Positions 5,341-64,000 are shown, counted from the first letter of the stretch. The stretch is 64,000 nucleotides of DNA from Fermentimonas sp. (GCA_028683355.1 JAQUIZ010000001.1:15618-79617), one strand, 5' to 3'. Numbers and translations are program-made. The notes: generated from the letters alone by a model not told the origin.

Positions 5341-5347
5341 GGGAAAG

Positions 5348-10529: not shown

Positions 10530-10556
10530 CAATACCAACCTTTTATCTCACAGATA

Positions 10557-15954: not shown

Positions 15955-15959
15955 GTACT

Positions 15960-16178
15960 ATGGCAAAAGGAATAGACCCCAAATTTGTACATTACGGCAT
16001 CCGCAAGGATGATCTTGCAATGATAGAAGCTATTTGCGCTACCGAAGACATAGATTTTGATTGGCTGAGTGAGGACATCTTGAAAGCCTACCATGCAAAA
16101 AAAGTGGATGTAATCGAAATGAATGATGGCGATACGGAAGAGATAATCCGCAACGCCATACAGAAAATACGTCAATAA
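15960..16178 (+). CDS. 72-aa acidic protein of unknown function
   Basis: ATG at 15960, 5 nt after the res stop. The longer ORF-track entry (15615-16178) overlaps res out of frame. The gene is tightly packed before the DndD-like gene. Confidence 0.55.
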   Translation: MAKGIDPKFVHYGIRKDDLAMIEAICATEDIDFDWLSEDILKAYHAKKVDVIEMNDGDTEEIIRNAIQKIRQ

Positions 16179-16191
16179 ATGAATTTACGCC

Positions 16192-18192: not shown

Positions 18193-18198
18193 ATAGTT

Positions 18199-19785: not shown

Positions 19786-19800
19786 AAAACATTCTAGCAA

Positions 19801-21390: not shown

Positions 21391-22555
21391 AAACAATATT
21401 TGTTACATAGCATCCGCTGGTGCTGGTAAAACGACCAAATTGGTTAAAGATGCAGCAATTAATGCGACCAATGATTCTTGCAAAAAAATTGCAATTATCA
21501 CATACACACAGAATAATCAAGCCCATATTAGAAGTAAATTAGAACAATATGAATTTGGTTATAAAATTGTTGTAATGGGTTGGTTTGAGTTTCTATTAAA
21601 GCATTGGATAACACCATTTAAGACGATGATTTTTCCACACCTAATTGATTCTCATATAGGCATAGCTCCTGTTGAAGGCAAATCTGGAATTAAAAAACTC
21701 TCAGATGGAAGAACTTTTGTTGCTTATCAAAAGGAAGATTACAGTAAAAAATATCTAACCACTGAAGGATCTAAAGTATATACTGATAAAATATCGGAAT
21801 TAGCCTATGAATTATATACAAGAAACGAAACAGATGTGATCGAAAGGTTAAATTCCATATTTGATTTTTTATATTTTGATGAATGTCAGGATTTTGTAGG
21901 ATACGATTATGAAATCCTGAAAATATTACTTGTAAAGTCTAAGATTTGTTGTGTCCTAGCCGGAGATCCTCGTCAACATACATATTCGACACATGCAACT
22001 TCAAAGTATAAAAAATTTTCTGGAGATATTGCAACTTTCATTCAAGAAAACATCAATAGAAAAAGAAAACAATATGTAATCATAGATAAAACAAGTCTTG
22101 TCAAATCTCACAGATGTCCGCCATCTATATGCAATTTTGCAAATGTAATAATGTCTCAATTTCCCAAAATGGAATCTGCTAATATGCGATATTACCAAAC
22201 TGAACATTGCAAACTGGTTAGGCAAAAAGACGCTGAAAATTATATAAACAGATTCAATCCCATTGCACTTATCTGGAACCATAGCGCAAAAGATAAAGTA
22301 CACTCAAATATTAGCAGAATATACAACATGGGGGAAGTTAAAGGTCTTGACTTTCTGAATATCATCGTTTATCCAACAAAAACTATGGAAAAGTGGATAA
22401 AAGATACAAATACAGAATTATCAAGAGAGGCACGAGCCAAATTATATGTAGCTGTTACACGAGCGGAAATATCAACAGGAATAGTTGTTCCTGACGATTT
22501 TCATATTCCATTAAATTCTAAGATTCAATTTTGGGACAACAATTCAGGCATATAG
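21383..22555 (+). CDS. gajB: short UvrD-like SF1 helicase (GajB-like)
   Basis: Motifs ASAGAGKTTKLV, LYFDECQDFVGYD, LAGDPRQHTY and LYVAVTRAEIS. It overlaps the gajA-like gene by 8 nt. Confidence 0.75.
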   Translation: MVRNNICYIASAGAGKTTKLVKDAAINATNDSCKKIAIITYTQNNQAHIRSKLEQYEFGYKIVVMGWFEFLLKHWITPFKTMIFPHLIDSHIGIAPVEGKSGIKKLSDGRTFVAYQKEDYSKKYLTTEGSKVYTDKISELAYELYTRNETDVIERLNSIFDFLYFDECQDFVGYDYEILKILLVKSKICCVLAGDPRQHTYSTHATSKYKKFSGDIATFIQENINRKRKQYVIIDKTSLVKSHRCPPSICNFANVIMSQFPKMESANMRYYQTEHCKLVRQKDAENYINRFNPIALIWNHSAKDKVHSNISRIYNMGEVKGLDFLNIIVYPTKTMEKWIKDTNTELSREARAKLYVAVTRAEISTGIVVPDDFHIPLNSKIQFWDNNSGI

Positions 22556-22655
22556 GACAATAACACTATGCCTGATCGTTTATGCTAAGTATTTTAAAGA
22601 ATAATTCTTTTGAATACATGAAATAGATAAATATTAACAAATTAGACAAATAAGT

Positions 22656-23183
22656 ATGAGTATGCCAGATGATAGAAGACCAAGAATTATCGACGTAACA
22701 CGCAAGCCGACAAAATGTCCAGATTGCGGTGAAAGAGTCGTTGATATAATTTATGGTACTGGAGATATGACTGAAATTGAGTTTGCACTTCAATACAGAA
22801 AAGAAGCCATTATGGGTGGAGACAATATACCTCGTCGTCCTCCAATATGGTGTTGCTCGTGTGGATGCAAACGATTTAGAAAAGTGAATCCTGATGGAAC
22901 GGATGCTCCAGTAAAAGTAAAAATGCTGAAAAACATCCGTAAAGCACCTGCCTCTAAAATAAATTGGAGTTCAAAGATGATTGAAACAGCCTTAGATAAC
23001 AAGGATATCTATACTATACATCACTATCATGCAAAGATAATTACTGAACTTGGTGAATGTGAAACTCTTTCTCTAACTGCCGTAAGTACTGAAGATGCAA
23101 AAGAACTGGCAAAAGAATTAGTATCAAGTGGTTTACTTGGACTTGACGGTCGTACTTGTATGAATATAGAATTTATAGAATAG
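22656..23183 (+). CDS. zinc-ribbon protein, function unknown
   Basis: 175 aa. CPDCGERV ... WCCSCGCKRF forms a Cys4-type ribbon, with an unassigned C-terminal half. It lies 7 nt upstream of the next gene. Confidence 0.55.
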   Translation: MSMPDDRRPRIIDVTRKPTKCPDCGERVVDIIYGTGDMTEIEFALQYRKEAIMGGDNIPRRPPIWCCSCGCKRFRKVNPDGTDAPVKVKMLKNIRKAPASKINWSSKMIETALDNKDIYTIHHYHAKIITELGECETLSLTAVSTEDAKELAKELVSSGLLGLDGRTCMNIEFIE

Positions 23184-23190
23184 TTCGCAA

Positions 23191-24210
23191 ATGGAAAAGA
23201 CAATCGATGGAGTAGTATACTATCTTCCGAGTAATTTAACATCGGAACAAGAAGCCATTTATGTTCACATCATAGACTGGAAGCGAAAATACATCACTAC
23301 GCAAAGAGGTTTATACAGGGGACATGAATACGATGCTATATTCCCAGATGAGAACCCTATCCCAGAAATGCTGTACAAACCGATAATACCATTGCTGAAT
23401 GAAATGCAACAAGGTAAATTTGCTTATAAACCACATAAGTTTGCCTATCACGCCGTAAGTTCACAGACTGCTTGTATCAATCTTTTCATGCCTTTACTCC
23501 TTTCTGAAGATGCAGACAGCATATTACCTATGATTCCAGGATGTCCTGCGGACTTCAGTAAGATAGCAAGAGACAAGTTGTTCAGTGGATTCTGTTTTGA
23601 ATATTGGGGACAAGACATTAAACAAGGCACAGGTGTATTGAATGACCATTCCAGCCAGGCCGGAACGGATGCGGATGTCGCAATTGCGTATTATAACAAG
23701 GAAGACAAATTATGTCTATGGCTTATAGAACATAAACTGAGCGAGAAAGAGTTTACAATGTGCGGTGCATACAAAAGCAAAGCAAATAGAAACAAGCATA
23801 ATTGTTCTCAATGTGATTTCATGAGTATAGCCAAAGAGCCTCAGAAATGCCATTATCACAAGATAGGATATGAATACTGGAATATTCTAAAGAAAAATAT
23901 GGAAAGATTCCAAGGTTTAATTGAGATTGAAGGCTGTCCATTCAAAAACGGACTTAACCAGCTATGGCGTAATCAGATGCTTGCATTTGCGTTGCAGGAA
24001 ACAGGAGAGTATCATACAGTAACTTTCTCGGTATGCCATCATGCAAGAAACACCATGTTAGACAAGTCAATCAATCGATACAAAGCATTAACCTGTGGAG
24101 ATAGAATATTCAGTTCTTTCACCAACTATGATGTTTTGAATGCTGTAACTACGCACGATTATGATTTGCCAAAATGGATACAATGGTATAAAGAGGTCTA
24201 TTGCTTTTAA
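23191..24210 (+). CDS. PD-(D/E)XK nuclease-like protein with a Cys/His-rich insert
   Basis: HAVSSQTACINLFMPLL is followed by GTDADVAIAYYNKEDKLCLWLIEHKLSEKEF (a D ... E-x-K core). After that comes C-x13-C-x2-C ... C-H-x-H. Confidence 0.6.
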   Translation: MEKTIDGVVYYLPSNLTSEQEAIYVHIIDWKRKYITTQRGLYRGHEYDAIFPDENPIPEMLYKPIIPLLNEMQQGKFAYKPHKFAYHAVSSQTACINLFMPLLLSEDADSILPMIPGCPADFSKIARDKLFSGFCFEYWGQDIKQGTGVLNDHSSQAGTDADVAIAYYNKEDKLCLWLIEHKLSEKEFTMCGAYKSKANRNKHNCSQCDFMSIAKEPQKCHYHKIGYEYWNILKKNMERFQGLIEIEGCPFKNGLNQLWRNQMLAFALQETGEYHTVTFSVCHHARNTMLDKSINRYKALTCGDRIFSSFTNYDVLNAVTTHDYDLPKWIQWYKEVYCF

Positions 24211-40648: not shown

Positions 40649-40672
40649 CTATAATGGGACGTTTGCGTATTT

Positions 40673-40714
40673 CAATCCAACCGTAGGGAGTTTGTTCTCC
40701 TTGCGGTTGGATTG
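40673..40714. terminator. strong inverted repeat between convergent genes (bidirectional terminator candidate)
   Basis: CAATCCAACCG (40673-40683) pairs perfectly with CGGTTGGATTG (40704-40714). An inner GGAG/CTCC pairing adds to the stem. Confidence 0.6.
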
Positions 40715-40728
40715 TTGTAGCTATACAG

Positions 40729-41355
40729 TCAGTCAATATCATAGCCTATCACATAATCGTCATTGATAAGCAGATAGTAGTAGCCGTTGCCACAATTCCG
40801 ATATTCCTTGCTGAAGCCTGCCGCCATATCGCCATTGTCTCGTGGCTCACACCAAAGCGTTCCGTCATAACCGCAAAAATCAAAGCGGCAAGTGGAAAAT
40901 TTCTCTTTGTTTTTCAGTGCCTCACGGAAGAGACGCATTGCTGTCGTTCCACAGTATTTTTCAATGGTGGCAAGTCCGATACATTTGCCGTCGATGCGTG
41001 TGCCTGTTGTAATGTGGTTCTCGTAAAGGTTTTTATCCAAATCCGCATTGGCGATTTCACGAAGCCAGGAATTTGTATGTGTGGCAAGTCGAGCAAGTTT
41101 CTGATATTTCAGAATAAGTTTCCTGTCCGTATTCTCGTCCTGTTCTTGCGAGGGATAGTATATTTGCTCGATGCTTGCCCAATCTGTAAACACATAGCCT
41201 TTTGTCCGCTTGCCGAGAGCGATAATGCCAATAACACCTCTGTCTCGGTTGATGAACAAGCGTCTGCGTTTTCCTGCAATCCGCACGTATAAAGACGGAG
41301 GATTGGTTTCGTTGCGAAGATAGCTCTCCGCCGGATGAATAGTTGTCATTTCCAT
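40729..41355 (-). CDS. hypothetical protein (208 aa)
   Basis: Last gene of a tightly packed minus-strand operon. No motif recognised. Confidence 0.5.
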   Translation of the reverse strand: MEMTTIHPAESYLRNETNPPSLYVRIAGKRRRLFINRDRGVIGIIALGKRTKGYVFTDWASIEQIYYPSQEQDENTDRKLILKYQKLARLATHTNSWLREIANADLDKNLYENHITTGTRIDGKCIGLATIEKYCGTTAMRLFREALKNKEKFSTCRFDFCGYDGTLWCEPRDNGDMAAGFSKEYRNCGNGYYYLLINDDYVIGYDID

Positions 41356-41363
41356 ATCTGTAT

Positions 41364-41603
41364 CTATTTTTCAATGTTTATTTTACCTATCCTTACCAAT
41401 GTACCATTGCGGTAAAGCATGATTTCTCCGGGCTTGAACCCCATTTCTCCGAAGGCTATGTATTTGATATAATCCCGGTACTTCTCGCCTGAAAAGTTTT
41501 TACCGCACAAGTTGTTGAAAAACATGGGTATTGAAAACCCATCCTCTCCTGACAACACTGTTTTGCCGTTTTGCCTGATTTCGTCTAACATACCAATTTC
41601 CAA
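41364..41603 (-). CDS. hypothetical small protein (79 aa)
   Basis: Co-oriented with its neighbours; overlaps the upstream ORF by 19 nt. Confidence 0.45.
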   Translation of the reverse strand: MEIGMLDEIRQNGKTVLSGEDGFSIPMFFNNLCGKNFSGEKYRDYIKYIAFGEMGFKPGEIMLYRNGTLVRIGKINIEK

Positions 41604-41836
41604 TTTTCATCATCAATCGTAAGTTTGTTCATTTCCCAATCATACTCCACTTCCGGTGCATTGGTATAGGGAAAATTGATGGTGTAGCCGATTTGTCCGT
41701 AGGAACAATGAAGCGGTGTTACACATATTTCCCTGCCAAAATAAAGGCTCGGTGTGCAGTATTTCCGCCAATTAAAGCGGTCTGCAAGGATATTCCTGCA
41801 AAGTCTTCTGTAATATGATTTGTCCGATAAAGTCAT
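41585..41836 (-). CDS. hypothetical small protein (83 aa)
   Basis: Co-oriented and tightly packed. Confidence 0.45.
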   Translation of the reverse strand: MTLSDKSYYRRLCRNILADRFNWRKYCTPSLYFGREICVTPLHCSYGQIGYTINFPYTNAPEVEYDWEMNKLTIDDENWKLVC

Positions 41837-41847
41837 AATTATGTGTA

Positions 41848-42210
41848 TTAAAGAAATTCCATTTCAAATGCTTGTAGCAATTCATATATTTGTTCTTCGG
41901 CATCTTCCATATCCGCTACAATATCCTTGATGTGATAAGGTGCGCCATTCTTGCCGTGTCCGTCATCGCCTATCCACAAATAGGCTTCATAATCGGGGTC
42001 AAAACCCTCGTAATACTCTTTTACACTGGCTATGAGGGAATCAATATCCTCGCCCTGCATATCGGCATTGAAGAGAAAATCCTGTCCGTACTTGGTATAG
42101 CGTTGAAACTCAAACAATACTCTTGTCTCGTTTTTGTCTTCAACGTTCACGCTCCAGCCTTTTTCTTGGGCAATGTCGGTTATTCTCTGTATCTGTTCTT
42201 CGGTAGTCAT
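41848..42210 (-). CDS. strongly acidic 120-aa protein (candidate DNA mimic or anti-defence)
   Basis: By my count about 29 Asp+Glu against about 9 Lys+Arg. It lies in the ArdC/PcfJK neighbourhood. Confidence 0.55.
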   Translation of the reverse strand: MTTEEQIQRITDIAQEKGWSVNVEDKNETRVLFEFQRYTKYGQDFLFNADMQGEDIDSLIASVKEYYEGFDPDYEAYLWIGDDGHGKNGAPYHIKDIVADMEDAEEQIYELLQAFEMEFL

Positions 42211-42261
42211 CTTGTGAGGGTTTTGAAGTGGGGAAACTTTTTACATTTCCCCACACGTGGC

Positions 42262-42594
42262 TTAATCCGTTACTTGAAAATAATACTCCTGCTTCTCGTC
42301 CGACCATTCGGAGGTCATTTCGTCCGCTTCTCTCCATAGCTTGTCATAGAGAATGGCTCTTTGGTTGTCTCTCTCGTGCCACTGCCATATCTTGTGATTG
42401 AGTACAAGGCAGAGTTCCGTCCAATACTTGTAGTTGTCTTTCCATTCGGACTTGGCTCGGCTGTATGTGTCGGCTATGGCTTTGTCTCCGAATTTATCGG
42501 CAATGGAGAAGTCCTGCCAAAAGGTGGTTATCGGCTCGTAACCGTTCAACTCTGTTATGTTCCATCTTGGGATGGCGATTTGAAGTGCTTTCAT
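42262..42594 (-). CDS. hypothetical Trp-rich small protein (110 aa)
   Basis: Co-oriented ORF. No motif recognised. Confidence 0.5.
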   Translation of the reverse strand: MKALQIAIPRWNITELNGYEPITTFWQDFSIADKFGDKAIADTYSRAKSEWKDNYKYWTELCLVLNHKIWQWHERDNQRAILYDKLWREADEMTSEWSDEKQEYYFQVTD

Positions 42595-42599
42595 AATCG

Positions 42600-42911
42600 T
42601 TATTGTTTATGGTTTTCGTAATACTCTTCGGGCAAATAATAGAGGTCGTTCTCTGACAAATGGTCTATGGCTTCCGCTGCCAGACGGCACGCCCATTCGT
42701 TACGCTGGTCATATCTTCCCTTGTGCCAGTTCTCCGCCAACTGCTCCATAAAGTAGAACATCAGCTTGGCTTTTTCGTTTACCAAATAGCGGTGGTCATC
42801 CGCCAATGCCTTGCCCACCTTTCGGGGTGAAGCCATTTTTCCGTTTACATAGTTTGAGAACTCGTCCGCAAAGCGTTTGTCGTTCTCCGATAATTGATTG
42901 TTGTACTCCAT
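42600..42911 (-). CDS. hypothetical small protein (103 aa)
   Basis: The ATG at 42911 (MEYNNQLSEND...) is preferred. The ORF-track extension to 43304 runs through the conserved non-coding element. Confidence 0.5.
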   Translation of the reverse strand: MEYNNQLSENDKRFADEFSNYVNGKMASPRKVGKALADDHRYLVNEKAKLMFYFMEQLAENWHKGRYDQRNEWACRLAAEAIDHLSENDLYYLPEEYYENHKQ

Positions 42912-43313
42912 TTCTAATGAATTTTGATGTTGAACATTTTTTCTTTTCCCTCTGGTCGGTTCTTTCCCGTCTGAACCGCCTTGGAATTTTATGGATGCGG
43001 TAAACGGCTGTCGGCACAGCTTCATGCGACGGCTTTCCCGGCCAATTACTCTTTCACGGAAAGGAAGAATTTGCAGGGAATGCACTTCAAGCCGGAGAAT
43101 CAAGCACGACAGCAGACCTTTGCATCTGATAAAACCAAGAGCGGTGTGGACGGAAGATGAGCCACGGCAGTTATACCTATAAAAGGAAGATGGCTTGGGC
43201 AAAATATAAAGGTTGAGATACAAAAGGAAGCTGCCAACGCAGTTTAGGCAACTCATAAAAACGGGTATCGTGCTTTTGTGAAACCACGTAAGCACGACAC
43301 TCATTGATAAGAG
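42912..43313 (-). repeat. copy C (divergent) of a conserved ~300-400-nt non-coding leader element
   Basis: It shares the exact 16-mer TTTTTTCTTTTCCCTC (42937-42952) and GTTGAAC with copy B. It shares ACAGCAG(T)ACCTTTGCA and CGGAGAATC blocks with copies A and B. Confidence 0.5.
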
Positions 43314-43760
43314 CTAAAAAGATGAAGGCAGTAAATCACTCATCCTCTGTTCCGGCAAACCGCAAAAGCCCCGAATGATAGTATCTCCGTTTACGCCATC
43401 AAGTTTGCTGAACATCTGCAAGGAGTCAAATCCTCTGTCGAATTGCTCCTTGCTGACAGCAGGGGCAAAATGAATAACTCCACGTGGATAGCTTTTTGAT
43501 ACACCTATCCACCCACGCAAATAATCATCGAAATGTCCGTCCGCTTTCGACACATAGAACTCTTGCGAATGAGAACTGCAAATGTTCTTTCCGTACATCT
43601 CGTCTCCTAAAATCAGGATTCCGATTTTAGGATTGTACATAAAACGTCTGTTGGCTATTTGAAGAATATCTATGATTTTCTGTTTGATATTGATAACCAT
43701 CAGGGGTTTCCCAATCTCTCTTTTTGCACGTTTGCCTGTGCCGTAACCTTTCTTTTCCAT
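43314..43760 (-). CDS. hypothetical protein (148 aa)
   Basis: Second gene of the middle minus-strand operon. No motif recognised. Confidence 0.5.
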   Translation of the reverse strand: MEKKGYGTGKRAKREIGKPLMVINIKQKIIDILQIANRRFMYNPKIGILILGDEMYGKNICSSHSQEFYVSKADGHFDDYLRGWIGVSKSYPRGVIHFAPAVSKEQFDRGFDSLQMFSKLDGVNGDTIIRGFCGLPEQRMSDLLPSSF

Positions 43761-43784
43761 ACTCCAGTCTTTTATGCTCTCCGA

Positions 43785-44366
43785 TTATGCCGATATTTGA
43801 TATTCGTGAATAGAGCAGTATGCGTCTTCATTTTTTTCTTTCCATTGCATGACAATCGCATTGACATCCTGACGGGATTTAACTTGTACTTCGCAAATAT
43901 CCTCCAGCCAGTCATATACGCTTTCCAAGTCTTGAAAATACTCGGAATAGTATTCTTCCTCCGAAGTGCATACATCAACATAGTATCTGTCGGGAAAGTA
44001 TTTGCCCTTATCATCATTCGTCCAATACTCACACATACCAGGTTCTTCCGACTGATAGAAATATCGCAGCGTGGGATATTTCTCACATACCATATCAAAC
44101 ATTTCATTGCAGGGAGACCACGCTGTTTCTGTATTGAACGTAAGCACCTCACCGTTGAATTTGAGGTTATCCCACGTTCCACGGCAATATATCTTTTCCC
44201 AACTTTCTCCGAGGGCTTCTACAAGACACCCTAACCACGTAGTTCCAAAACCATTTTGAACGGACGGCTTTTGTCGTTTTTCTAAATCTTTCATTAACTC
44301 ATAGAGTTTTTTCAATTCTGTTGCGTTGCCCTCTATCGCATACGCAGTGCTGCACCAATTCGGCAT
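43785..44366 (-). CDS. acidic Cys/Trp-rich protein, possibly DUF1281/YubB-like
   Basis: The N-terminus MPNWCSTAYAIEGNATELKKL resembles the M-x-N-W-C start of a family I recall from plasmid leading regions. The assignment is tentative. Confidence 0.5.
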   Translation of the reverse strand: MPNWCSTAYAIEGNATELKKLYELMKDLEKRQKPSVQNGFGTTWLGCLVEALGESWEKIYCRGTWDNLKFNGEVLTFNTETAWSPCNEMFDMVCEKYPTLRYFYQSEEPGMCEYWTNDDKGKYFPDRYYVDVCTSEEEYYSEYFQDLESVYDWLEDICEVQVKSRQDVNAIVMQWKEKNEDAYCSIHEYQISA

Positions 44367-44700
44367 AATCGTAAATTTTTATTGTTAGACTTGTTTTTGT
44401 TTCCCTCTGCTTGGAAGCCTTCCGACTTCGCCACCAGGATATGTTTTATGTGCGTTAAAGACTGCGTTACAAGGGAGATAAGACAAGTAAACAAACAAGG
44501 AGTTAATGAAATACCCAATTTCTGCCTGCCGGAAATTGAGGAAAGTTGTCGTTAAGTCCGGTGATTTGTTAGCCGAAGCGATACTTGGTGTTCTCCCACA
44601 GCAGTACCTTTGCACCATAAAACAATCCGCGCGGCGTGGTGGTCGGCTCAAAGGAGAATACTCAAAAAACTATAATGGGTTGTTAGTAGGTAAAACAGAT
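44367..44700 (-). repeat. copy A of the conserved non-coding leader element
   Basis: The core at 44477-44559 matches 47431-47513 at 73 of 83 positions by hand alignment. It contains the hairpin CAATTTC (44516-44522) / GAAATTG (44532-44538). Confidence 0.65.
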
Positions 44701-44850
44701 TTGACCTTTGAGTGGTGCTATAAACGGCACAAGTGGTTGTATAAATGGAAGAATTGCGTACATTGCTATATTTTAACAGGTTACATCTACCACTTTGCGG
44801 TAGAATTAAAACAGTACATCGCTACGGCAATCAGCGAGCAGCCGTAGCCG

Positions 44851-44896
44851 GATACATAAAAGCCACCTGCTACATTGTATATCGTAACAAGTGGCT
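44851..44896 (-). terminator. candidate terminator after the pcfJ-like operon
   Basis: 44861-44869 pairs with 44888-44896. This gives 9 bp on the minus-strand RNA including one G-U; the same position is a C-A mismatch on the plus strand. The stem is followed by UUUAUGU. A second hairpin is GCTACGGC/GCCGTAGC at 44821-44848. Confidence 0.4.
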
Positions 44897-44916
44897 GACG
44901 AAAAGAACAAAACAGA

Positions 44917-46182
44917 TTATGCTGTCATACGCTTACGGATTTGCCGTGCGTTTTTCTGTACAAGTTGTATGATGCGGTCGTGGTATTCTGTGTTTTGGTT
45001 GCAAAGCCCTCTTGATTGCAGGACTTTGAAATTTTCAAGCGACAGTTCAACAGTCTCAATGCGTTTGTCATTTATCCGTGCAGAGAAAACCAAAGACTTG
45101 GGTTTGAGGTAGTATTCGCATTGTCCCACACAATGATGTAAAGCATTTCCCTCTTTGTAATAATCATCCACACTCTCCAACACGCTGACTACAATCAGTC
45201 CGTCAGTGAATGACAATCCAAAGAATTTGCCTTTCAACTCTCTGAACTTCTCCTCATTCTCCTGCGCCTTTTTCTGCTCGGCTTCACGTTTCTCTCGCTC
45301 TTGGATAACCCTTACCCTCTCTTGATAGCGGTCGTGCTCGGCTTTCAAATCCAATGGGCAGACATAATGGGCATTGCGAATATCCTTGCCACACCTTTCA
45401 AGCAAGCGGATGTAATCCACCCAAAGGGAAATGTCGGATATGTGATAATTGTTACGCATCACTATCTTATAAGTGTTCCAATACAAATCAAAATACATAG
45501 GGTGTTGCAGAAAATAGTTCAAATCCACCTTTCTCCCTGCCTTGAACATCGTTTCGGCTCTACTGTCCTGCAACAAGGCTTCAATCAGCTTCGTTGGCTC
45601 AATCTCCGACAAAGAACCTCTTAGTCCGTTGCGTCTTAACTTGGTTGTGGCAGAATAATAAGGATAAACCTTGCAATCGGCAATCCGCCTGTAAACATTA
45701 TTGTCGTTCCGCAGTTCTATATGATTGTCAAAGACAAAGCTGTCTATATAGTAGCCGAGTGTACGCCTTAATGCCGTTACTTCTGTCTTGCCATTATCAT
45801 CAATCCAATAACGGACTACCTCCATAGAGTAAAAATCGGCTTTCTTGCCCTTGCGATAATGAGCCGTCAAAAGGAACACCCTCTGCACCTGTAAGCCGTC
45901 TTGGGTTGTCAGTATGGAGTAATAGGATTTGTCTTTATACTTACGCTGTAAGGTGTTGCGTATCTCCAACTTTGTATCGCAGCGAGGGCAACGGCAGGTC
46001 TTTTCTCTGGTCTCGCTCCATTGGTGTCCGCAATCCATACAGGTGGTCATACCGCTTTTGGCACGGAACGCATAATGATTTAAGCAATGGCGAAATGCCC
46101 ATAACTCTTGCTTCTCGGTCAGTGGCAGTAACCGCTCATTGGCGGTTACTACCTTGTGCTGTAATCTCGTCTTGGCTCTCAT
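44917..46182 (-). CDS. pcfJ: PcfJ-like protein
   Basis: 421 aa with N-terminal Cys pairs (CMDCGHQW ... CRCPRCD) and C-terminal GNALHHCVGQCEYY typical of PcfJ-like proteins. The PcfK-like gene lies immediately upstream. Confidence 0.75.
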   Translation of the reverse strand: MRAKTRLQHKVVTANERLLPLTEKQELWAFRHCLNHYAFRAKSGMTTCMDCGHQWSETREKTCRCPRCDTKLEIRNTLQRKYKDKSYYSILTTQDGLQVQRVFLLTAHYRKGKKADFYSMEVVRYWIDDNGKTEVTALRRTLGYYIDSFVFDNHIELRNDNNVYRRIADCKVYPYYSATTKLRRNGLRGSLSEIEPTKLIEALLQDSRAETMFKAGRKVDLNYFLQHPMYFDLYWNTYKIVMRNNYHISDISLWVDYIRLLERCGKDIRNAHYVCPLDLKAEHDRYQERVRVIQEREKREAEQKKAQENEEKFRELKGKFFGLSFTDGLIVVSVLESVDDYYKEGNALHHCVGQCEYYLKPKSLVFSARINDKRIETVELSLENFKVLQSRGLCNQNTEYHDRIIQLVQKNARQIRKRMTA

Positions 46183-46619
46183 AGTCCTAAATCAAATAGT
46201 GATGGTTGGGTAACTTCCTGTTTCGTTGCTTTCTGGGTTGGCTTGGGTCTGCTGTTACGTTGTTGTATCTTCCGCAGTTCCTCGTCTTGATAGGCTTTGA
46301 GTGCCTTTTCCCTCGCTTCGGCTTGCTCTTCGGGAGTAAGTTCTACCCTATGATTGACTATCACACCGCAATTGACGGCTTTACCCACCTCTATATTGTC
46401 TTCATCATAATAGTGGGTACAGAGAGAATAAACCTCATTGTCGGTCATTCCACAACCGCCCTCTTTGCATATAGCCATTGCTTGGTTGAGTACAAATGTG
46501 ATGCAATCGTCCAAATTCTTGTTCTCTTTGGCATACGACACGGCAAAGAGTTCATCCGTCTTGGCTCTATCGTCCAAATATGCCTTTATGGTCTGCTTGA
46601 ATTGTTCTGTTCCTTTCAT
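46179..46619 (-). CDS. pcfK: PcfK-like protein
   Basis: The N-terminus MKGTEQFKQTIKAYLDDRAKTDELFAVSYAKENKNLDDCITFVLNQ matches my memory of Bacteroides PcfK-like proteins. It has a 4-nt overlap with the pcfJ-like gene. Confidence 0.7.
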   Translation of the reverse strand: MKGTEQFKQTIKAYLDDRAKTDELFAVSYAKENKNLDDCITFVLNQAMAICKEGGCGMTDNEVYSLCTHYYDEDNIEVGKAVNCGVIVNHRVELTPEEQAEAREKALKAYQDEELRKIQQRNSRPKPTQKATKQEVTQPSLFDLGL

Positions 46620-46627
46620 ATCGTCTG

Positions 46628-46840
46628 TTATTTTGCTTGATAATAAATACTTGGCTCACTTGAAACATTGTAGATGTATGCTCCGCACCTTACCAACAAT
46701 GCCTGTTTACCATAATACAATCGCTTCATTTCTTTGACACTGCCTGTGTTATGGAAGTTGGGAAATCGGCTGATATTACAGCGTTCTCCCTGCTCTTTGG
46801 TCATTCTTCGTGTTCTCATAGCATTAGAAATGATAGTCAA
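46628..46840 (-). CDS. hypothetical small basic protein
   Basis: 70-aa ORF that overlaps the upstream gene by 17 nt. Coding status uncertain. Confidence 0.35.
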   Translation of the reverse strand: MTIISNAMRTRRMTKEQGERCNISRFPNFHNTGSVKEMKRLYYGKQALLVRCGAYIYNVSSEPSIYYQAK

Positions 46841-47309
46841 TCACTCCACTGATATACAGCAATGTTCCAGGCACTAATTGGCTTACCACTCGCAGAAACT
46901 CGTAAGATTCTTCGGCAGCTCCGTTGATACACTGCTCGTCCATATAAAATTGATAGCCGGTGTCAAGCGGATTTTTGAGGTACTTTTCAAGTTGGTACAC
47001 CTCGCCAATCCAAAGAGTGCAGTTCTCTGTGGTAACGGCTTTCGCCTTTTCTTGCAAGGTTGCCACAAATTCCTCTTTCCATTTGTCCGCACCGCCATTG
47101 TAACGGATTGTATCATCTGAAACAAGCTCAAACATACCTTTGGGCAGAATGTTATTTATCAGATTGTCGATGTGGAATTTACGCTCTTCCTCGTCAATCT
47201 CCGAACAATAGTCATAATAGTGTCCGTCTCCTTGTTCAAGGGTGCAGTCGTTCAGAATGTTGTCTTTTAGAGGTCTCTCTTCTGTGATTTGAAAAATCTT
47301 GCTGTGCAT
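46824..47309 (-). CDS. acidic hypothetical protein (161 aa), first gene after leader copy B
   Basis: Rich in Asp/Glu. First ORF of the pcfK/pcfJ operon. Confidence 0.5.
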   Translation of the reverse strand: MHSKIFQITEERPLKDNILNDCTLEQGDGHYYDYCSEIDEEERKFHIDNLINNILPKGMFELVSDDTIRYNGGADKWKEEFVATLQEKAKAVTTENCTLWIGEVYQLEKYLKNPLDTGYQFYMDEQCINGAAEESYEFLRVVSQLVPGTLLYISGVIDYHF

Positions 47310-47665
47310 AATCTGTCTGTTTTAATCGTTGAACTTTTATTTTTTCTTTTCCCTCATTTTTGAAGCCTTTATCGGCTTTCTTGTCGGGATCTGAATTTTA
47401 CGTGCATTCAGAGACTGTGGACTACAGAGGGATAAGACAAGTAAATGCCAGAGGAGTTGATGAAATACCCAATTTCAGCCTGCCGGAAATTGCGGAAAGT
47501 TGTCGTCAAGTCCACAAGGCATTAGTGGAGCCAATCGGAGAATCGGTACTTGGCGTTCCCTCGCCGCAGTACCTTTGCAAAGGAAAATGGAGCCGACAAG
47601 AATAGCCGGAGAAGCTCACAGTATTGTGATAATAGAAACAGGTATAATGGTCTGGTAGTAGGAAT
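47310..47665 (-). repeat. copy B of the conserved non-coding leader element
   Basis: Contains the 16-mer TTTTTTCTTTTCCCTC (47340-47355) and the core 47431-47513. It has the hairpin CAATTTC (47470-47476) / GAAATTG (47486-47492) and a second hairpin at 47545-47573. Confidence 0.65.
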
Positions 47666-47682
47666 TATAAAACAGGATAAAA

Positions 47683-47808
47683 TATAACAAAACGGCAAAC
47701 TCGATGTATATTTGCCAAAATCGTTATAACATTCGCAGCGTTATCTTACTAACAGTATAACAAAAATGGCAAACCACATTGTTATATGCCAAATTTGTTA
47801 TAACTTTG
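47683..47808 (+). promoter_or_regulatory. two tandem imperfect palindromes plus a -7 box upstream of abiEi (candidate autoregulatory operator and promoter)
   Basis: Unit 1 (47683-47730) is TATAAC-n5-GGCAAA ... TTTGCC-n6-GTTATAAC. Unit 2 (47756-47804) is TATAAC-n6-GGCAAA ... TGCC-n6-GTTATAAC. TAACTTTG (47801-47808) fits TAnnTTTG, 22 nt before the ATG. Confidence 0.55.
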
Positions 47809-47830
47809 CAGTATAATTCAAAAAGCAATA

Positions 47831-48559
47831 ATGACTGCTGTAAATCAAATAATAGATATTGCTAAGAAACAGGATGGCATATTCACAAGAAAAGACTTGT
47901 TGAATGTGGTACGATTTGGTATGAAAAACATATCAGAAGGGTCTCTTGCTGTGCTTTTGAATAGGATGATTGCAGAAAACAAAATCATTAGGGTTTCATA
48001 CGGGAAATATAAATTAAATGAAGATTTGAAGCATGAATTTTTGTATGAACCAAACGAATTTATGCTTTCACTCAACAAGCATATAAAAGAAAAATTTCCT
48101 TTCATCGACTATTGTATATGGCAACCGTCTGTATTTGCATCAATGATGCTACATGTACCTGCGGTAAGAACCACATTAGTAGATGTTGAAAGGGAAGCGA
48201 TGGAATCTGTTTTTATGTCATTACAAAACGTCGAATCAGAAATCCCTATTTTCTTGAATCCGTCCCAAGAAGATGTGGACAGATACATTACAAATAGAGA
48301 CTTAATTATTGTCCGCCCTCTTGTTAAAGAGGCTCCATTAGATGTTATAAATGGTTGTCCCGTTCCCACATTGGAGAAAATGCTTGTTGATGCCATATCT
48401 GACAAAGAACTACAACATCTTCAAGGCAATGAATTATATACTATATATTCAAACGCATTCTCTGACTATGCAATCAAAAAAACAAGGTTATTGAGATATG
48501 CGGCACGTCGCAACCGAAAACAAAAAGTTGAACAAATTATCAATACAATCAATATATGA
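47831..48559 (+). CDS. abiEi: AbiEi-like antitoxin / transcriptional regulator
   Basis: 242 aa with a winged-helix-like N-terminus. It has a 4-nt overlap with the downstream AbiEii-like nucleotidyltransferase gene. Confidence 0.7.
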   Translation: MTAVNQIIDIAKKQDGIFTRKDLLNVVRFGMKNISEGSLAVLLNRMIAENKIIRVSYGKYKLNEDLKHEFLYEPNEFMLSLNKHIKEKFPFIDYCIWQPSVFASMMLHVPAVRTTLVDVEREAMESVFMSLQNVESEIPIFLNPSQEDVDRYITNRDLIIVRPLVKEAPLDVINGCPVPTLEKMLVDAISDKELQHLQGNELYTIYSNAFSDYAIKKTRLLRYAARRNRKQKVEQIINTINI

Positions 48560-57656: not shown

Positions 57657-57731
57657 ATCAAAAGAGGAATAATCTTAATCATTACCACTGTGCATAAACT
57701 TACAGGATGGTTTCAGAATATATCAACAATT

Positions 57732-59522
57732 ATGAACTACTTGAAAATTACCGATAGCTTAAAAAAGGAAGTTGAGCCCAAGCTAAAGAATTACTTTCCT
57801 GGAAGATGCTACAAGACGGAAACAAATCATTATCACGACAATCGTTTCATCCAATTGGAGACTATTCTCCACGATATCGATATACATTACGAATACTATC
57901 AAGGATACGTTGAATTGCACCTTGAAGGGAAATTTAGCGGTTATGAATATAATACTATTTGGAGAGAGTTAGTTGAAGAATCTTATCAGCATCAAGAACT
58001 AAGTTGGCATAGATGGGGTAATCGTAATCAAGGCCGGTGTAGAATCAATATTTCTATTCAGTCTACAGACGATATCATCAAATGCTTTGAGAAAATATCT
58101 AAAATATTCGACCCTGTGCTATCTCCTTTATCAGCAGAGCATGAAGACACAGAAGTTATAATGCAGCAAATAGAAAAACTGGAGATTCTTCCACCTGCCG
58201 ATAGCATGCAAGTAGAAAAACTAACATACGGCATTCTGAAAATAAGGGAATTGCCTTTCAACAACTTCGTAATCCCAGAGTATCAGCGTCCATACAAATG
58301 GGGTGTAAAGAATGTCAATCAGTTAATAAACGACCTTTTGCATTTCAGAGATAGCGAAGAATACAGACTTGGAACTATTGTGCTTCATGAGAACAACATA
58401 GTGGATGGTCAACAGCGTATAGTCACCCTATCTTTACTCCTGTACAAACTGTTCGGCAAAAAAGAGATAAGGGCTGCGAATCCTTATCAGGAAGTACAAG
58501 ATAGAATAAAAACATTTTGGAAACGGACTGAATTTAAAAACGAGCATTCGATTGGCCATGTGAGAGAGAATCTGACAGCTATTGAAGATAGATTGGATGA
58601 TTTGGACGAGGATTTCTTGGATTTCCTTCTGAACAAATGTCAGTTCGTTGTAGTTCGTCTGCCAGAAATTTCCGAAGCATTCCAATTCTTCGATTCTCAA
58701 AACGCAAGAGGAAAAGATTTGGAACCGCATGATTTATTGAAAGCGTTTCATCTTAGGGAAGTCAAAAAACTTTCTGAAAAGGACGGCGATAACATCACAA
58801 AATGGCAGGAACTTGACACTCAAAGACTGGTTGATTTGTTCCTGACTTTGTATAGAGTCAAAAGATGGGCTAAAAACAACAGCGGAAAAGAGTTCACCAA
58901 AGACAATATTGACGCTTTTAAGGGCATATCTCTGGAAGATAAACGGTATCCTTTTTATATGCAGCAAATTATATGTCACTTCTTCTCATCGTTTTATGCT
59001 AATGAGCCGTCCAGATTGATAGATCGGTCAAAGATGGAGTTCCCTTTCCAGATAGATCAGATTTGCATCAACGGAAGCCGTTTTTTTGACATGATTCGCT
59101 ATTACGATGCTTTATATCATAAAATCATAGACGAGAACGAATATAAAAAATATGACTCGATAGAAGATGAAAAGTCAGCATATAAAATCGTCCGAACTTT
59201 GAATGCCTACTCTAACAGAACTCGTACTGGAGATACTTATGTCCGCCAGTTATTTAATTGCCTCTTGATTTATTACGTTGATAGATTTGGCTTCGCAGAA
59301 ATAAACAAAGTGGTAAAAAAGATTTTCAGATATGCATATCAAATTCGTTTGGTACACTATAGTGTTCAACTTCCAACAATAGATAATAGTGCCATTAACG
59401 GTGTTATGTTCAAAGCTATTCGTGATGCCCAGTCTCCTTATGACATCATTAATCTCATGATTCCACAAATTGGGCCGTTGGCATCAAATGCTGATTCTCA
59501 GATTAAACAACTATATGACTGA
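57732..59522 (+). CDS. DUF262 (ParB/GmrS-like NTPase) domain protein without a recognisable nuclease domain
   Basis: FVIPEYQRPYKWGVKNVNQLINDLL and VDGQQRIVTLSLLL. An unassigned N-terminal region of roughly 180 aa precedes DUF262. No His-Me/HNH motif at the C-terminus. The ATG at 57732 is preferred to the GTG at 57690. Confidence 0.8.
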   Translation: MNYLKITDSLKKEVEPKLKNYFPGRCYKTETNHYHDNRFIQLETILHDIDIHYEYYQGYVELHLEGKFSGYEYNTIWRELVEESYQHQELSWHRWGNRNQGRCRINISIQSTDDIIKCFEKISKIFDPVLSPLSAEHEDTEVIMQQIEKLEILPPADSMQVEKLTYGILKIRELPFNNFVIPEYQRPYKWGVKNVNQLINDLLHFRDSEEYRLGTIVLHENNIVDGQQRIVTLSLLLYKLFGKKEIRAANPYQEVQDRIKTFWKRTEFKNEHSIGHVRENLTAIEDRLDDLDEDFLDFLLNKCQFVVVRLPEISEAFQFFDSQNARGKDLEPHDLLKAFHLREVKKLSEKDGDNITKWQELDTQRLVDLFLTLYRVKRWAKNNSGKEFTKDNIDAFKGISLEDKRYPFYMQQIICHFFSSFYANEPSRLIDRSKMEFPFQIDQICINGSRFFDMIRYYDALYHKIIDENEYKKYDSIEDEKSAYKIVRTLNAYSNRTRTGDTYVRQLFNCLLIYYVDRFGFAEINKVVKKIFRYAYQIRLVHYSVQLPTIDNSAINGVMFKAIRDAQSPYDIINLMIPQIGPLASNADSQIKQLYD

Positions 59523-59527
59523 TTATT

Positions 59528-61495
59528 ATGAATGATATACAAGAACTTACAATAAAAGAATTACTCTGCGGCAGTGAATATCGAATTCCTATTTATCAAA
59601 GAAATTATGCTTGGGGCTTAGGCGAAACAACCCAACTTATTCAGGATATAGCGGACTATGCGAAAGATTCACCCGCAAACAACTATTACATAGGAAATCT
59701 TATTGTGTTCCCAAGGCATTACAACAACAGCCTGTATTTCGAGACAATTGATGGACAACAGAGAACAACAACTATAACTATTCTCTTATGTGCGCTAAAA
59801 CACAACTATGCAAAATATGACCTATCTTGGTATTCCAAAGTAAATATCTCTTTTGACCATAGAGAGAAATCAAACCTCACGTTGTCCGCGCTGTACAATA
59901 ATCCTGAATCTGTCAACTATGACGTTGTCAATGCAAATATAATGGCTGTATATAACAAAGCGTGGAGTATAGTTGATAAGATTTGTCAGGATAAAGAGAT
60001 TTCCGTTTCTACTTTTATTGATTATCTACTTAATAAGGTAATCATTCTTCGGATAAGTGTTCCCAAAGACACAAACCTTAATCACTATTTCGAGATAATG
60101 AACTCCAGAGGGGAGCAACTTGAGCAGCATGAAATCGTGAAAGCACAACTTATGTCTCCAATCAAGGACAATCAGTCTACTATGGCTGCTTTTAATCTGA
60201 TTTGGGAAGCCTGCTCTAATATGGATAGATATGTTCAGCTAAATTTCTCAAAAGCCACAAGAGAACAAATATTTGATAACAATGGCACTGAAAATATTAA
60301 AATTTCATTCAATGATTTAGCTGCATTATACAATAAAAATTCCGTTCTTGGTAACGAAGAAAAAAATCATTCTTTAGAGCGGTTATTCTTAGATGCTGCT
60401 AACAACACACCTTATAGTAAGCCATGGGAAGAAGGTCCCGACAAAGATCAATCAGAAACTTACCATTCATTGATTACTTTTTCCAACTTTCTTCTTCACG
60501 TCTTAAAAATAATCCGTCCGGCCAATAAAGAAGTAGTGCTGGATGACAAAAGGTTGACAAAGATTTTCAAAAGCGTGATTAAAAGCGAAAAAGACGCTGC
60601 TGGTTTCAGCATCGAGTTTATTATGAAACTCCTCGATTTACGTCTTCTCTTTGATAAATACATCATTAAACGAAAACAAGATAAATGGAGTCTGAAGAAA
60701 TTATTACCTCAAAAAGCAGATAAAGATAAATATTATTACAAAGACACATTCTCACAAACAGAATACGAAGATGATGGATCTGGACAAAACCGTAATATAA
60801 TTATGCTCCTATCAATGTTTCATGTGTCAGCACCGACTCAGATATATAAGCATTGGATGAATGCCAGCTTATACTATGTCTATAATCATAGGAATACAAA
60901 TGCTACTGAATATGCGGAATATTTATGGAATTTATCAAAAGCATATATGTTAGATAGATACTTAGCAATCCCCGAAAATAAGGTTCCATTTGAGACTATT
61001 ATATTCGAGAATAATGGAAAGAGTGTAAATCACGATAAAGATATCCTATGGTCAAATATCAATATAGACGAGTACCCACAAAAAGGAGAACATGTGGAGA
61101 ATTTTGTATTTAACTTTTACGATTATCTGTTATTGAAAGAGACAAAGGATACAGATTTTGAGTTTTCGTACAGAACTTCTGTAGAACATTTCTACCCACA
61201 ACATCCAACGGATAAAGATCCAATGGATTTTAACCATCTACATAGTTTTGGGAATCTGTGTCTTGTCAGTAGGGGTATGAATTCAAAATTTACTAATAAT
61301 CTCCCGGGAGCAAAATATGAAAACTTTGGTGATGCCAAAGCTATGAAGACCTATAGTCTCAAATTAAAATCCATGATGAATACCATTAAGAAAGGAGAAA
61401 GGTGGGACGAGACGAAAATTGCTCAAAAAGAACAAGAAGCAAAAGAATTGATCAGTAAGGCTCTATTGTCAGAAAAGCCATTAGAATGCTTTTAG
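59528..61495 (+). CDS. DUF262-DUF1524 protein (GmrSD-like type IV restriction enzyme family)
   Basis: YRIPIYQRNYAWGLGETTQLIQDI and IDGQQRTTTITILL form the DUF262 part. The C-terminal His-Me finger-like motif is TSVEHFYPQHP ... FGNLCLVSRGMNSKFTNN. Confidence 0.85.
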   Translation: MNDIQELTIKELLCGSEYRIPIYQRNYAWGLGETTQLIQDIADYAKDSPANNYYIGNLIVFPRHYNNSLYFETIDGQQRTTTITILLCALKHNYAKYDLSWYSKVNISFDHREKSNLTLSALYNNPESVNYDVVNANIMAVYNKAWSIVDKICQDKEISVSTFIDYLLNKVIILRISVPKDTNLNHYFEIMNSRGEQLEQHEIVKAQLMSPIKDNQSTMAAFNLIWEACSNMDRYVQLNFSKATREQIFDNNGTENIKISFNDLAALYNKNSVLGNEEKNHSLERLFLDAANNTPYSKPWEEGPDKDQSETYHSLITFSNFLLHVLKIIRPANKEVVLDDKRLTKIFKSVIKSEKDAAGFSIEFIMKLLDLRLLFDKYIIKRKQDKWSLKKLLPQKADKDKYYYKDTFSQTEYEDDGSGQNRNIIMLLSMFHVSAPTQIYKHWMNASLYYVYNHRNTNATEYAEYLWNLSKAYMLDRYLAIPENKVPFETIIFENNGKSVNHDKDILWSNINIDEYPQKGEHVENFVFNFYDYLLLKETKDTDFEFSYRTSVEHFYPQHPTDKDPMDFNHLHSFGNLCLVSRGMNSKFTNNLPGAKYENFGDAKAMKTYSLKLKSMMNTIKKGERWDETKIAQKEQEAKELISKALLSEKPLECF

Positions 61496-63212: not shown

Positions 63213-63593
63213 TTATTTCTTGCCTTTTTTCGTTTTCTTTTCCGGTTCCGCAGGAATTTCCTCCTTGTCGGGTGTCTGGTAAAACTTGTTAGCGACCATG
63301 ACGATGCGGTTGTGTTTCACGCCGTCCTTGTCAATCCATTCTTCGGGTTTGAAGTAGCCCTCCACTGTGAGCAGGGTGCCCTTGGTGATTTGGGCAAGCG
63401 AATCGGTGTTGGCGTTGTTGCGCCAGGCTTCCACATTGATGAAAGCGGACACACGTTTCGTTTCCTCGCCGCTCTTCTCCTGACGGCTTACTGCCAATGA
63501 GAAGCGTGCTACGCTTGCGTTTGCGAACTGACGGATTTCTGCGTCCTTACCTACGAATCCTGATACTGCGAAATTGTTCTCAATCTGTTTCAT
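63213..63593 (-). CDS. ssb: single-stranded DNA-binding protein (OB fold)
   Basis: The start is the ATG at 63593. MKQIENNFAVSGFVGKDAEIRQF ... FINVEAWRNNA ... TLLTVEGYFKPEEW has an SSB-like OB-fold pattern, with a Lys-rich tail. Confidence 0.75.
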   Translation of the reverse strand: MKQIENNFAVSGFVGKDAEIRQFANASVARFSLAVSRQEKSGEETKRVSAFINVEAWRNNANTDSLAQITKGTLLTVEGYFKPEEWIDKDGVKHNRIVMVANKFYQTPDKEEIPAEPEKKTKKGKK

Positions 63594-64000
63594 GTTACAA
63601 TGCTTTAAGTTGTTAATTAAATTATTTTTACGCTGCCAATATAAGTGAGTGCAGTTACAGGGGTGCGACAAGGTTAGCAATCAAATACTCTTTATTTTTG
63701 TCAGCGTAAGCCGTCAAAACTTACGGTCAGATAAAGGAAGATTTGTGAAGCTACACCATTGACCAAGGCTTTTAGCCGTACCCGGCTGCATACTAACTTT
63801 GCAACGGAAAAATGTGTGATAACACGACCAAAAGCGGTTGTGAAACGGGTTGATGAAAAAAAAATGAGCAAGGCTTCGTGAGTGGACAGCATCCGTCCGT
63901 AAATGTAAGTTTGAATAAACGCTCCGGCTGTAAGTCCAAAAGAAGAAGTATGATCGGAGAGGAACGAGTATTGTCGCCAAAAGTGGATGCCGGACAATGC

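Follow-up and report, generated by a model that had tools for sequence, protein, structure and literature searches.

The window analysed here, a stretch of 64,000 nucleotides from Fermentimonas sp. (GCA_028683355.1 JAQUIZ010000001.1:15618-79617), is a Bacteroidota integrative conjugative element (ICE), and it raises the question of what a structured, non-coding sequence does that recurs in it immediately ahead of small genes. The surrounding features are the following:

259-8236, plus strand: homologues of TraJ, TraK, TraM and TraN, and a coupling protein
about 8.3-24 kb: defence island
3' of the defence island: a Toprim primase-like gene and two ArdC-like genes
40729-47309, minus strand: block of small genes including pcfJ, pcfK and a DUF7688 gene
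to the right of this block: an AbiE pair, an OmpA-family gene and a MobV relaxase
44917-46182, minus strand: pcfJ (Pfam PcfJ, 1.5e-42), in the copy-B transcription unit
46179-46619, minus strand: pcfK (Pfam PcfK, 5.6e-50), in the copy-B transcription unit
44861-44896, minus strand: terminator-like hairpin after pcfJ, with 14 pairs including G-T, followed by TTTATG

Two intact copies of the element and a degenerate third one are present:

44367-44700, plus strand: copy A, with its consensus hairpin at 44430-44634 and the hairpin tip at 44516-44538
47310-47680, plus strand: copy B; this is the strand proposed to fold, and the template of the downstream genes
about 42912-43160, plus strand: copy C, degenerate (nhmmer E = 0.001)

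The homology of copies A and B is clear from blastn (E-value of 1e-30, 73% identity over 239 nt) and from the MAFFT alignment (80% identity over ~340 columns), and the terminator-like hairpin at 44861-44896 stands between the copy-B operon and copy A. Copy C has kept the long hairpin described below (DNA fold of −49.7 kcal/mol, z = −2.4), its promoter box reads GACCTTTG, and it sits within a mechanically called 234-aa ORF. The real downstream gene in this case is a 103-aa ORF (42600-42911, minus strand), and copy C aligns to orthologous copies that precede the same 103-aa family, where the elements are intact. Genes for OB-fold/SSB, ArdC-like and LPD11-domain proteins are found near element copies. 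An oriT or nic site of this ICE family was not found in the window; the gap at 40649-40728 was considered as an oriT and rejected, as it resembles a bidirectional terminator hairpin.

The search for relatives started from PcfK homologues, which were used to fetch 80 loci from species-representative genomes. Iterated nhmmer identified 47 copies in ~25 of these loci, which we called subfamily 1 and to which copy B belongs with an E-value of 3e-56. The remaining loci are CTnDOT-like (Prevotella, Porphyromonas, Alloprevotella, Bacteroides xylanisolvens and others) and carry a distantly related subfamily 2, which was uncovered by a motif-plus-fold scan and comprises 43 nhmmer hits. The family totals ~90 copies in the 80 Bacteroidota ICE loci, with one to four per locus, and is found in Bacteroides, Prevotella, Alistipes, Parabacteroides, Porphyromonas and other genera. 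All ~90 copies are co-oriented with the genes, and the mean pairwise identity within subfamily 1 is 58% (36 unique copies). A collection of 72,556 plasmid records gave only four weak, unannotated matches to the element. The whole window has no match in Rfam 15 at the gathering score, the region 44200-47900 has two chance-level matches only at E-values up to 10, and we found no description of the element in Rfam or in the literature searched.

The first-pass annotation had seen two local hairpins in copies A and B and had concluded that they represent a structured nucleic acid, either an RNA leader or folded ssDNA, and not a protein-binding array. The family analysis bears out the general conclusion and changes the structure. 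Each copy, ~300 nt in size, folds as one long imperfect hairpin of ~220-250 nt; this single hairpin is recovered in the minimum free energy (MFE) folds of A, B and C, in the case of A and B on either strand. In copy B the hairpin is placed as follows:

47380-47600, plus strand: family-consensus long hairpin, from the consensus pairs mapped to the window
47470-47492, plus strand: apical stem-loop CAATTTC-n9-GAAATTG, the tip of the long hairpin

The MFE fold of copy B alone stretches the hairpin to 47364-47616. The CAATTTC-n9-GAAATTG stem, correctly reported in both copies (47470-47492 and 44516-44538), is thus the tip of a much longer structure, and it is at this tip that the family varies most, with insertions of up to ~90 nt. 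The lower-stem sequences diverge between A and B, yet both are self-complementary.

The structure was tested on structure-agnostic MAFFT alignments of subfamily 1 (A3, 36 unique copies) and subfamily 2 (A4, 28 copies), with the consensus of per-sequence folds mapped to the alignment columns; this consensus was used instead of RNAalifold, which on the gappy MAFFT alignment gave 20 pairs only. In A3, 80.4% of the cells are paired, against 71.7% in shuffles and 32-44% with slid partners, and double changes are found in 247 cells against 90±8 (0/500 shuffles as high), with changes on both sides in 46 of the 71 pairs. The corresponding values for A4 are 77.7% paired cells (70.9% in shuffles, 40-44% with slid partners) and 172 double-change cells against 72±7, again with 0/500 shuffles as high, and 38 of 94 pairs changed on both sides. 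With strong covariation in two separately aligned subfamilies, the element is a structured nucleic acid.

The second local hairpin, GGTAC..GGCG-ttccct-CGCC..GTACC (47545-47573), does not share in this support. It can be drawn in both copies, and the base pair for which a compensatory change had been claimed does read T-A in A (44589/44598) and C-G in B (47554/47563). However, across the 36 unique copies that pair is U-A in one and unpaired in 19, the outer stem consists of near-invariant bases, and the inner stem is paired in 62.5% of the cells, with 6 double-change cells against 4.9 expected, which does not describe a conserved structure. We rejected this hairpin since it fails the family test and its bases pair instead over a long range with the other arm (in copy B, 47557-47561 with 47428-47432, and 47547-47552 with 47438-47443). 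The genuine compensatory changes, both between A and B and family-wide, fall in those long-range helices. Covariation in a larger alignment, the check that had been suggested for the local hairpins, is found for the long hairpin and not for the second local one. An intrinsic terminator or attenuator was also rejected, as neither strand has a T-run after the long hairpin.

The 3' arm of this hairpin carries a promoter motif. The relevant positions are:

47547-47552, plus strand: −33-like TACTTG (CTTG) of copy B, fully paired with CAAGTA at 47438-47443
47570-47577, plus strand: −7 box TACCTTTG of copy B, in the 3' arm and partly in an internal loop
44582-44587, plus strand: TACTTG of copy A
44605-44612, plus strand: −7 box TACCTTTG of copy A

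The −7 consensus of Bacteroidota is TAnnTTTG, refined as TAHHTTTG, with the G at −5 (PMC6847099), and the −7 box matches both forms exactly. In both subfamilies it falls in the best-conserved block, which reads GCAAAGGTA(C) along the gene strand and TA(C/A)CTTTGC antisense to it. At the homologous position, 36 of 37 subfamily-1 copies and 27 of 28 aligned subfamily-2 copies have an exact TAnnTTTG, and the two copies without it read TTCG; on the gene strand, a TAnnTTTG box occurs in one of 37 subfamily-1 copies. The −33-like element lies 17 nt upstream of the −7 box in copy B, and a CTTG/TTTG is found upstream of the box at 17-19 nt in subfamily 1 and 18-22 nt in subfamily 2. Its helix is paired in 94% (subfamily 1) and 81% (subfamily 2), and the partner arm, CAAG, is invariant in 36/36 subfamily-1 copies. 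The combination of CTTG/TTTG and exact TAnnTTTG on the 3' arm of the template-strand hairpin is found in 63 of 65 unique copies.

This association is strand-specific. Across the 80 loci, TTG-N16-20-TAnnTTTG occurs 100 times antisense to the genes and 29 times on the gene strand, and it lies within a long hairpin in 61/100 of the former against 3/29 of the latter. Within the 64-kb window, box, TTG spacing and hairpin coincide only at 44605 and 47570. The minus strand between 40000 and 48500, with about a dozen genes, has a single TAnnTTTG, inside an ORF, and no canonical promoters were recognised on the gene strand of the cluster; a scan of the region with the σ70-type consensus gave no match at the box positions. 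The earlier suggestion of a minus-sense function for the whole region is thus valid for the genes and the predicted transcript, which are on the minus strand, but not for the promoter motif and the folding strand, which are on the plus strand. Similarly, the terminator-like hairpin that had been cited in its favour is real on the minus strand, but it is silent on the strand on which the element folds.

In the plus-strand hairpin, the −33 element and the box run 5' to 3' from the tip to the base, antisense to the genes, and in the folded strand the box arm is the non-template side and the 5' arm the template. From the box geometry (G at −5) and the pair map, the following are predicted:

about 47401, minus strand: transcript start of copy B, a G, opposite the position 5 nt past the box G
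about 44449, minus strand: transcript start of copy A
47310-47401, minus strand: leader of copy B, ~92 nt (that of copy A is ~83 nt)

In the family, the start column holds either G or A, and it covaries with the column to which it is paired (pair 137-417). The copy-B leader contains a small stem-loop (47363-47378) and then an A-rich stretch before the ATG at 47309, which fits the Shine-Dalgarno-less initiation of Bacteroidota (PMC6847099). Across the family, this small stem-loop has 26 G-U against 14 A·C on the sense strand. In the opposite direction, the box of subfamily 1 is aimed at the 3' end of a co-oriented upstream gene, usually pcfJ, in 31 of 40 copies; as a dsDNA promoter it would therefore have no gene to serve there and would give antisense RNA only. 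Candidate divergent ORFs were rejected in both subfamilies, since upstream of subfamily-1 copies they are mostly spurious antisense ORFs inside real genes, and in the group of subfamily-2 loci represented by the CTnDOT-like locus L060 they are frame-inconsistent between loci. A few first-of-cluster copies do have real divergent neighbours.

The element is also tightly placed relative to the genes that follow it, as it ends 18-20 nt before the ATG of the downstream ORF, and this spacing is fixed. In the window these ORFs are:

46824-47309, minus strand: 161-aa ORF, immediately downstream of copy B
43785-44366, minus strand: 193-aa ORF, directly after copy A, with a weak DUF1281_C/Api92-like match

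At least eight unrelated small protein families directly follow the element, including PcfK and one protein with the LPD11 polyvalent-protein domain. The 161-aa family follows 17 copies and PcfK nine (in these other ICEs it is pcfK itself that is directly preceded by an element), and families of 116, 103, 84 and 193 aa are also found in this position. No match was obtained for the 161-aa ORF in Pfam, NCBIfam, PHROGs or PDB sequences; for the downstream proteins in general, Pfam returned only PcfJ, PcfK, LPD11 and the weak DUF1281_C, and PHROGs only families without an assigned function. By analogy, this neighbourhood resembles the leading-region genes of plasmid F, most of which are likewise uncharacterised.

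This comparison extends to the element. Plasmid F has two hairpin promoters, 92% identical and ~5 kb apart, which drive operons of its leading region from the transferred strand (T-strand) and are switched off by conversion to dsDNA (PMC9849209). ColIb-P9 has three hairpin promoters (PMC6294495), and for promoters of this kind (Frpo/ssi) the T-strand must be the template (PMC9849209, PMC6294495). We propose that the element is probably a Frpo-like ssDNA promoter, with a possible second role as a primer site, built on Bacteroidota motifs. When the ICE is single-stranded, the plus strand, which is the template of the 40729-47309 cluster, would fold at each element. The 3' arm of the hairpin, read 5' to 3', would then present the −33-like CTTG/TTTG in a well-paired helix, followed by the exact −7 TAnnTTTG, which in subfamily 1 would be partly unpaired in the fold. 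Since both the −33 and the −7 elements are carried in the stem, the folded DNA would mimic a dsDNA promoter facing the hairpin base. RNA polymerase with the primary sigma factor may initiate ~5 nt beyond the box, with the 5' arm serving as its template, and would leave the hairpin at its base, moving leftwards along the plus single strand into the minus-strand genes. The RNA produced would begin with a leader of ~85-92 nt and continue as the message of the small downstream genes, and it could also prime synthesis of the complementary strand. Conversion to dsDNA would remove the hairpin and turn off the promoter in the sense direction. The use of the hairpin by RNA polymerase, the timing and the primer role are thus all predicted, and the activity restricted to ssDNA and the early, transient expression are proposed by analogy with Frpo.

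The anatomy of the Frpo/ssi class is found here, namely a non-coding hairpin, a promoter in its stem directed towards the genes, and several copies. Like the sequences of F and ColIb-P9, the element is a ~300-nt non-coding, long imperfect hairpin (PMC9849209; PMC6294495; PMC11541004), has primary-sigma promoter elements in the stem facing the downstream genes, and occurs as two to four similar copies a few kb apart, each before an operon of small establishment-type genes; in both cases the folding strand is the template strand. In contrast, it uses the Bacteroidota TTTG and TAnnTTTG instead of TTGACA and TATAAT, its hosts are ICEs of another phylum, and the genes downstream are PcfK, PcfJ and uncharacterised families instead of ssb, psiB and ardA. 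Given the different phylum and promoter motifs, homology to Frpo is not expected. Its T-strand status and ssDNA-only activity are predictions from the sequence. The literature that we searched demonstrates ssDNA promoters for enterobacterial plasmids only (F and ColIb-P9) and does not mention Bacteroidota. A large survey of leading regions relied on the TTGACA/TATAAT consensus in its search (PMC11541004), and surveys using this E. coli consensus would miss the Bacteroidota motifs.

Two other groups of elements have to be considered. The single-strand origins ssoA and ssoU of rolling-circle plasmids, and sso1 of ICEBs1, are long hairpins in the displaced or transferred strand that are recognised by RNA polymerase in an orientation-dependent manner. 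They give short primers, are uncoupled from downstream ORFs and have the conserved motifs RS_B and CS-6, whereas the element described here is placed as a promoter-leader cassette. The EGeRS1 regions are repeated structured non-coding regions before establishment and anti-defence operons of the pLS20 family (PMC8708921), and the element is also repeated, structured, non-coding and immediately upstream of operons. However, EGeRS1 is >500 nt long, branched and GC-rich, with no promoter in the fold (PMC8708921), whereas the element consists of one hairpin of ~220-250 nt that contains an exact promoter box. In pLS20 the T-strand is the non-template strand, for which reason the authors rejected an ssDNA promoter (PMC8708921), and by the same argument the identity of the T-strand can by itself overturn such a reading here.

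Two lines of evidence bear on the strand, one from the fold and the other from the direction of transfer. In subfamily 1, G·T-type wobbles number 168 on the antisense strand against 61, a ratio of 2.75 compared with 0.9-1.7 in slid controls, whereas the ratio of 1.89 in subfamily 2 is not above its slid controls (1.1-1.9). Conserved wobble positions favour the antisense strand by 2 to 0 in A3 and by 4 to 1 in A4, and at two pairs (218-354 and 224-326) a near-invariant A·C mismatch of the sense strand corresponds to G·T on the antisense strand. The plus strand is the more stable in absolute terms in 33 of 36 copies, in part for compositional reasons, and the fold z-scores relative to shuffles are similar on both strands (−2.1 to −3.4). 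Because of this compositional share, and because the z-scores do not separate the strands, we take the strand asymmetry only as supportive.

With regard to transfer, the tra genes are opposite in strand to the cluster both in the window and in L060, where traN-traQ converge directly on the cluster. The mob (relaxase) and tra operons of CTnDOT are divergent (PMC3809561), and the usual rule is that the relaxase side enters last (PMC11541004); Samuel et al. (2024) assigned the leading side by convention from the relaxase position, and their supplementary tables include a PcfJ-like family and a Bacteroides TraN family (PMC11541004). Together, this rule and the opposition of tra genes and cluster would make the T-strand the one that is sense for the tra genes, and thus the template of the cluster. 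From this general relaxase-last rule we infer that the plus strand of the window would be the transferred one; the reviews and the Hfr discussion that we searched do not give the direction of transfer of CTnDOT-type ICEs. In the window, ~35-45 kb separate the tra genes from the cluster, which even with the right strand may not be a leading region in the classical sense and would enter tens of kb after oriT.

The alternatives differ mainly in the strand and in the state of the nucleic acid in which the element acts. The box and the −33 element on the plus strand would work without any folding, and the element could be a conventional dsDNA promoter whose antisense RNA over the upstream operon silences the resident cluster; the inverted repeat would then have some other role, such as the structured 3' end of the antisense RNA begun at the next element downstream. 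After crossing pcfJ and pcfK in the antisense direction, the transcript from copy A would indeed arrive at copy B in the orientation whose fold is the more stable in absolute terms, and this explanation would hold even if the T-strand is the sense strand. It leaves unexplained the ~70-95 bp of covarying hairpin around the promoter, the high conservation of the −33 partner on the other arm and the fixed 18-20 nt to the downstream ATG, it leaves the cluster without a recognisable sense promoter, and the hairpin is not followed by a T-run on the plus strand. We consider it rather doubtful. On the opposite strand, a structured 5' leader or intercistronic element of the sense mRNA, acting in RNase III processing, stabilisation or antitermination as proposed for EGeRS1, would agree with the position directly before ORFs and the repetition ahead of several operons (PMC8708921), with the ability of the sense strand to fold (~72% Watson-Crick cells, z = −2.4 and −3.2) and with the small 3' stem-loop, which is richer in G-U on the sense strand. 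But the sole motif common to both subfamilies is an exact host promoter box on the other strand with the correct −33 spacing, a coincidence for which a rough estimate gives chance odds of the order of 1e-3, and a sense RNA would have to tolerate near-invariant A·C mismatches at positions where the antisense strand has G·T. In addition, there is no conserved sense promoter upstream, a terminator-like hairpin precedes copy A in the window, and no Rfam family matches. An RNA leader of this kind is therefore unlikely, and of the two forms of structured nucleic acid that the first-pass annotation had left open, folded ssDNA fits the data better.

Folded ssDNA might also serve only as a single-strand origin or priming signal, like ssoA or sso1 of ICEBs1, with the genes expressed by other means. 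These have the same hairpin-plus-promoter anatomy, the title of Masai and Arai (1997) presents Frpo itself as promoter and primer site, and discontinuous priming would be well served by several copies on one strand at intervals of ~3 kb. Priming alone seems improbable to us, as it does not account for the ATG spacing, the conserved A-rich leader and the placement ahead of each unit's first gene after a terminator; it also overlaps with the ssDNA promoter and does not exclude it. Finally, multiple copies, a long inverted repeat and variable insertions at the tip are what could be expected of a selfish palindromic repeat, MITE- or REP-like, that spread in ICEs with no role for its neighbours. 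This is very improbable, considering that ~90 copies all have one orientation and a constant distance to the ATG, that the stem was kept by compensatory evolution despite drift to 58% identity, that the exact promoter box was kept across subfamilies, and that the 72,556 plasmid records hold only the four weak matches.

In dsDNA, the box should act as an ordinary antisense promoter, an activity that the ssDNA-promoter model neither needs nor explains. A tentative possibility is that the element is a toggle responding to strand state: in ssDNA the hairpin promoter would express the establishment genes, and in dsDNA the same box would fire in the opposite direction, with the antisense RNA running over the upstream operon as far as the next element and silencing the resident cluster.

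If the element is an ssDNA promoter as proposed, this mechanism would extend to the ICEs of Bacteroidota, a major gut phylum in which these ICEs are a main route of resistance-gene spread. It would provide a sequence signature for the ICE genes that are expressed first in a new host, making PcfK, PcfJ and at least eight uncharacterised families candidates for functions in establishment or anti-defence, and it would allow a prediction of which strand is transferred, and in which direction, in CTnDOT-like and related ICEs. For Bacteroides engineering, it would also offer a compact part of ~300 nt with which expression could be made transient and coupled to conjugation.

The 234-aa mechanical ORF at window positions 42600-43304 was rejected as an artefact, its reading frame running through a degenerate third copy (copy C) of the element, the ~300-nt hairpin family proposed to act as an Frpo-like ssDNA promoter. 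The real gene next to copy C is a 103-aa ORF, whose orthologues in L001, L003, L005 and L007, four of the PcfK-anchored Bacteroidota loci, are preceded by intact elements. Copy C retains the long hairpin (z = −2.4 for fold energy against shuffled sequences), but its box, the position of the Bacteroidota −7 promoter element, reads GACCTTTG. The features discussed here are:

40649-40728, perfect 11-bp inverted repeat, CAATCCAACCG-n19-CGGTTGGATTG
42600-42911, minus strand, 103-aa ORF beginning MEYNNQLSENDKRF
about 42912-43160, copy C, degenerate third element copy
44672-44680 and 47634-47642, plus strand, and also 40649-40658, CTATAATGG / GTATAATGG motif
47801-47808, plus strand, TAACTTTG box with TTG 19 nt upstream, outside any hairpin
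63213-63593, minus strand, SSB-family gene (Pfam, 2e-16)

In the stretch upstream of the SSB-family gene, at 63594-63860, the plus strand carries a TAACTTTGCAACGGAAAAAT box, similar to the copy B box TACCTTTGCAAAGGAAAAT, within a hairpin of ~190 nt. This arrangement could represent a fourth, highly diverged hairpin promoter, placed upstream of ssb as in the F plasmid, or could have arisen by chance. The hairpin does not fold better than shuffled sequences (z = −0.6), and nhmmer did not recognise the region as an element, matching a 25-nt piece only (E = 0.1).

Many copies of subfamily 1, which includes copies A and B, share the conserved CTATAATGG / GTATAATGG motif, which reads CCATTATAG on the gene strand and lies beyond the consensus hairpin, ~60 nt from the box on its 3' side. 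Within the motif is TATAAT, the −10 hexamer of E. coli; the primary sigma factor of Bacteroidota has a different promoter element. At the end of the cluster, the 11-bp inverted repeat separates the ArdC-like gene from the convergent last gene, and looks like a bidirectional terminator.

In the CTnDOT-like loci L060-L078, a stretch of ~600 nt preceding the subfamily-2 element (e.g. L060:4580-5190) holds no consistent ORF. Since the minus-strand ORFs of 109-115 aa found there differ in frame between loci, this region may be a further non-coding feature.

The ICE also contains a large defence island (8332-24210), with a SIR2-like gene, an N6/N4 methylase with RhuM and a ResIII helicase, an OLD-family ATPase with a UvrD-like helicase (Gabija-like), a HerA-like ATPase and a REase-ARP nuclease; two GmrSD-type nucleases are encoded at 57690-61495. 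The AbiEi start at 47831 lies 23 nt past the TAACTTTG box, which probably serves the abiE pair as an ordinary dsDNA promoter, and this non-hairpin box provides a useful internal contrast to those embedded in hairpins.
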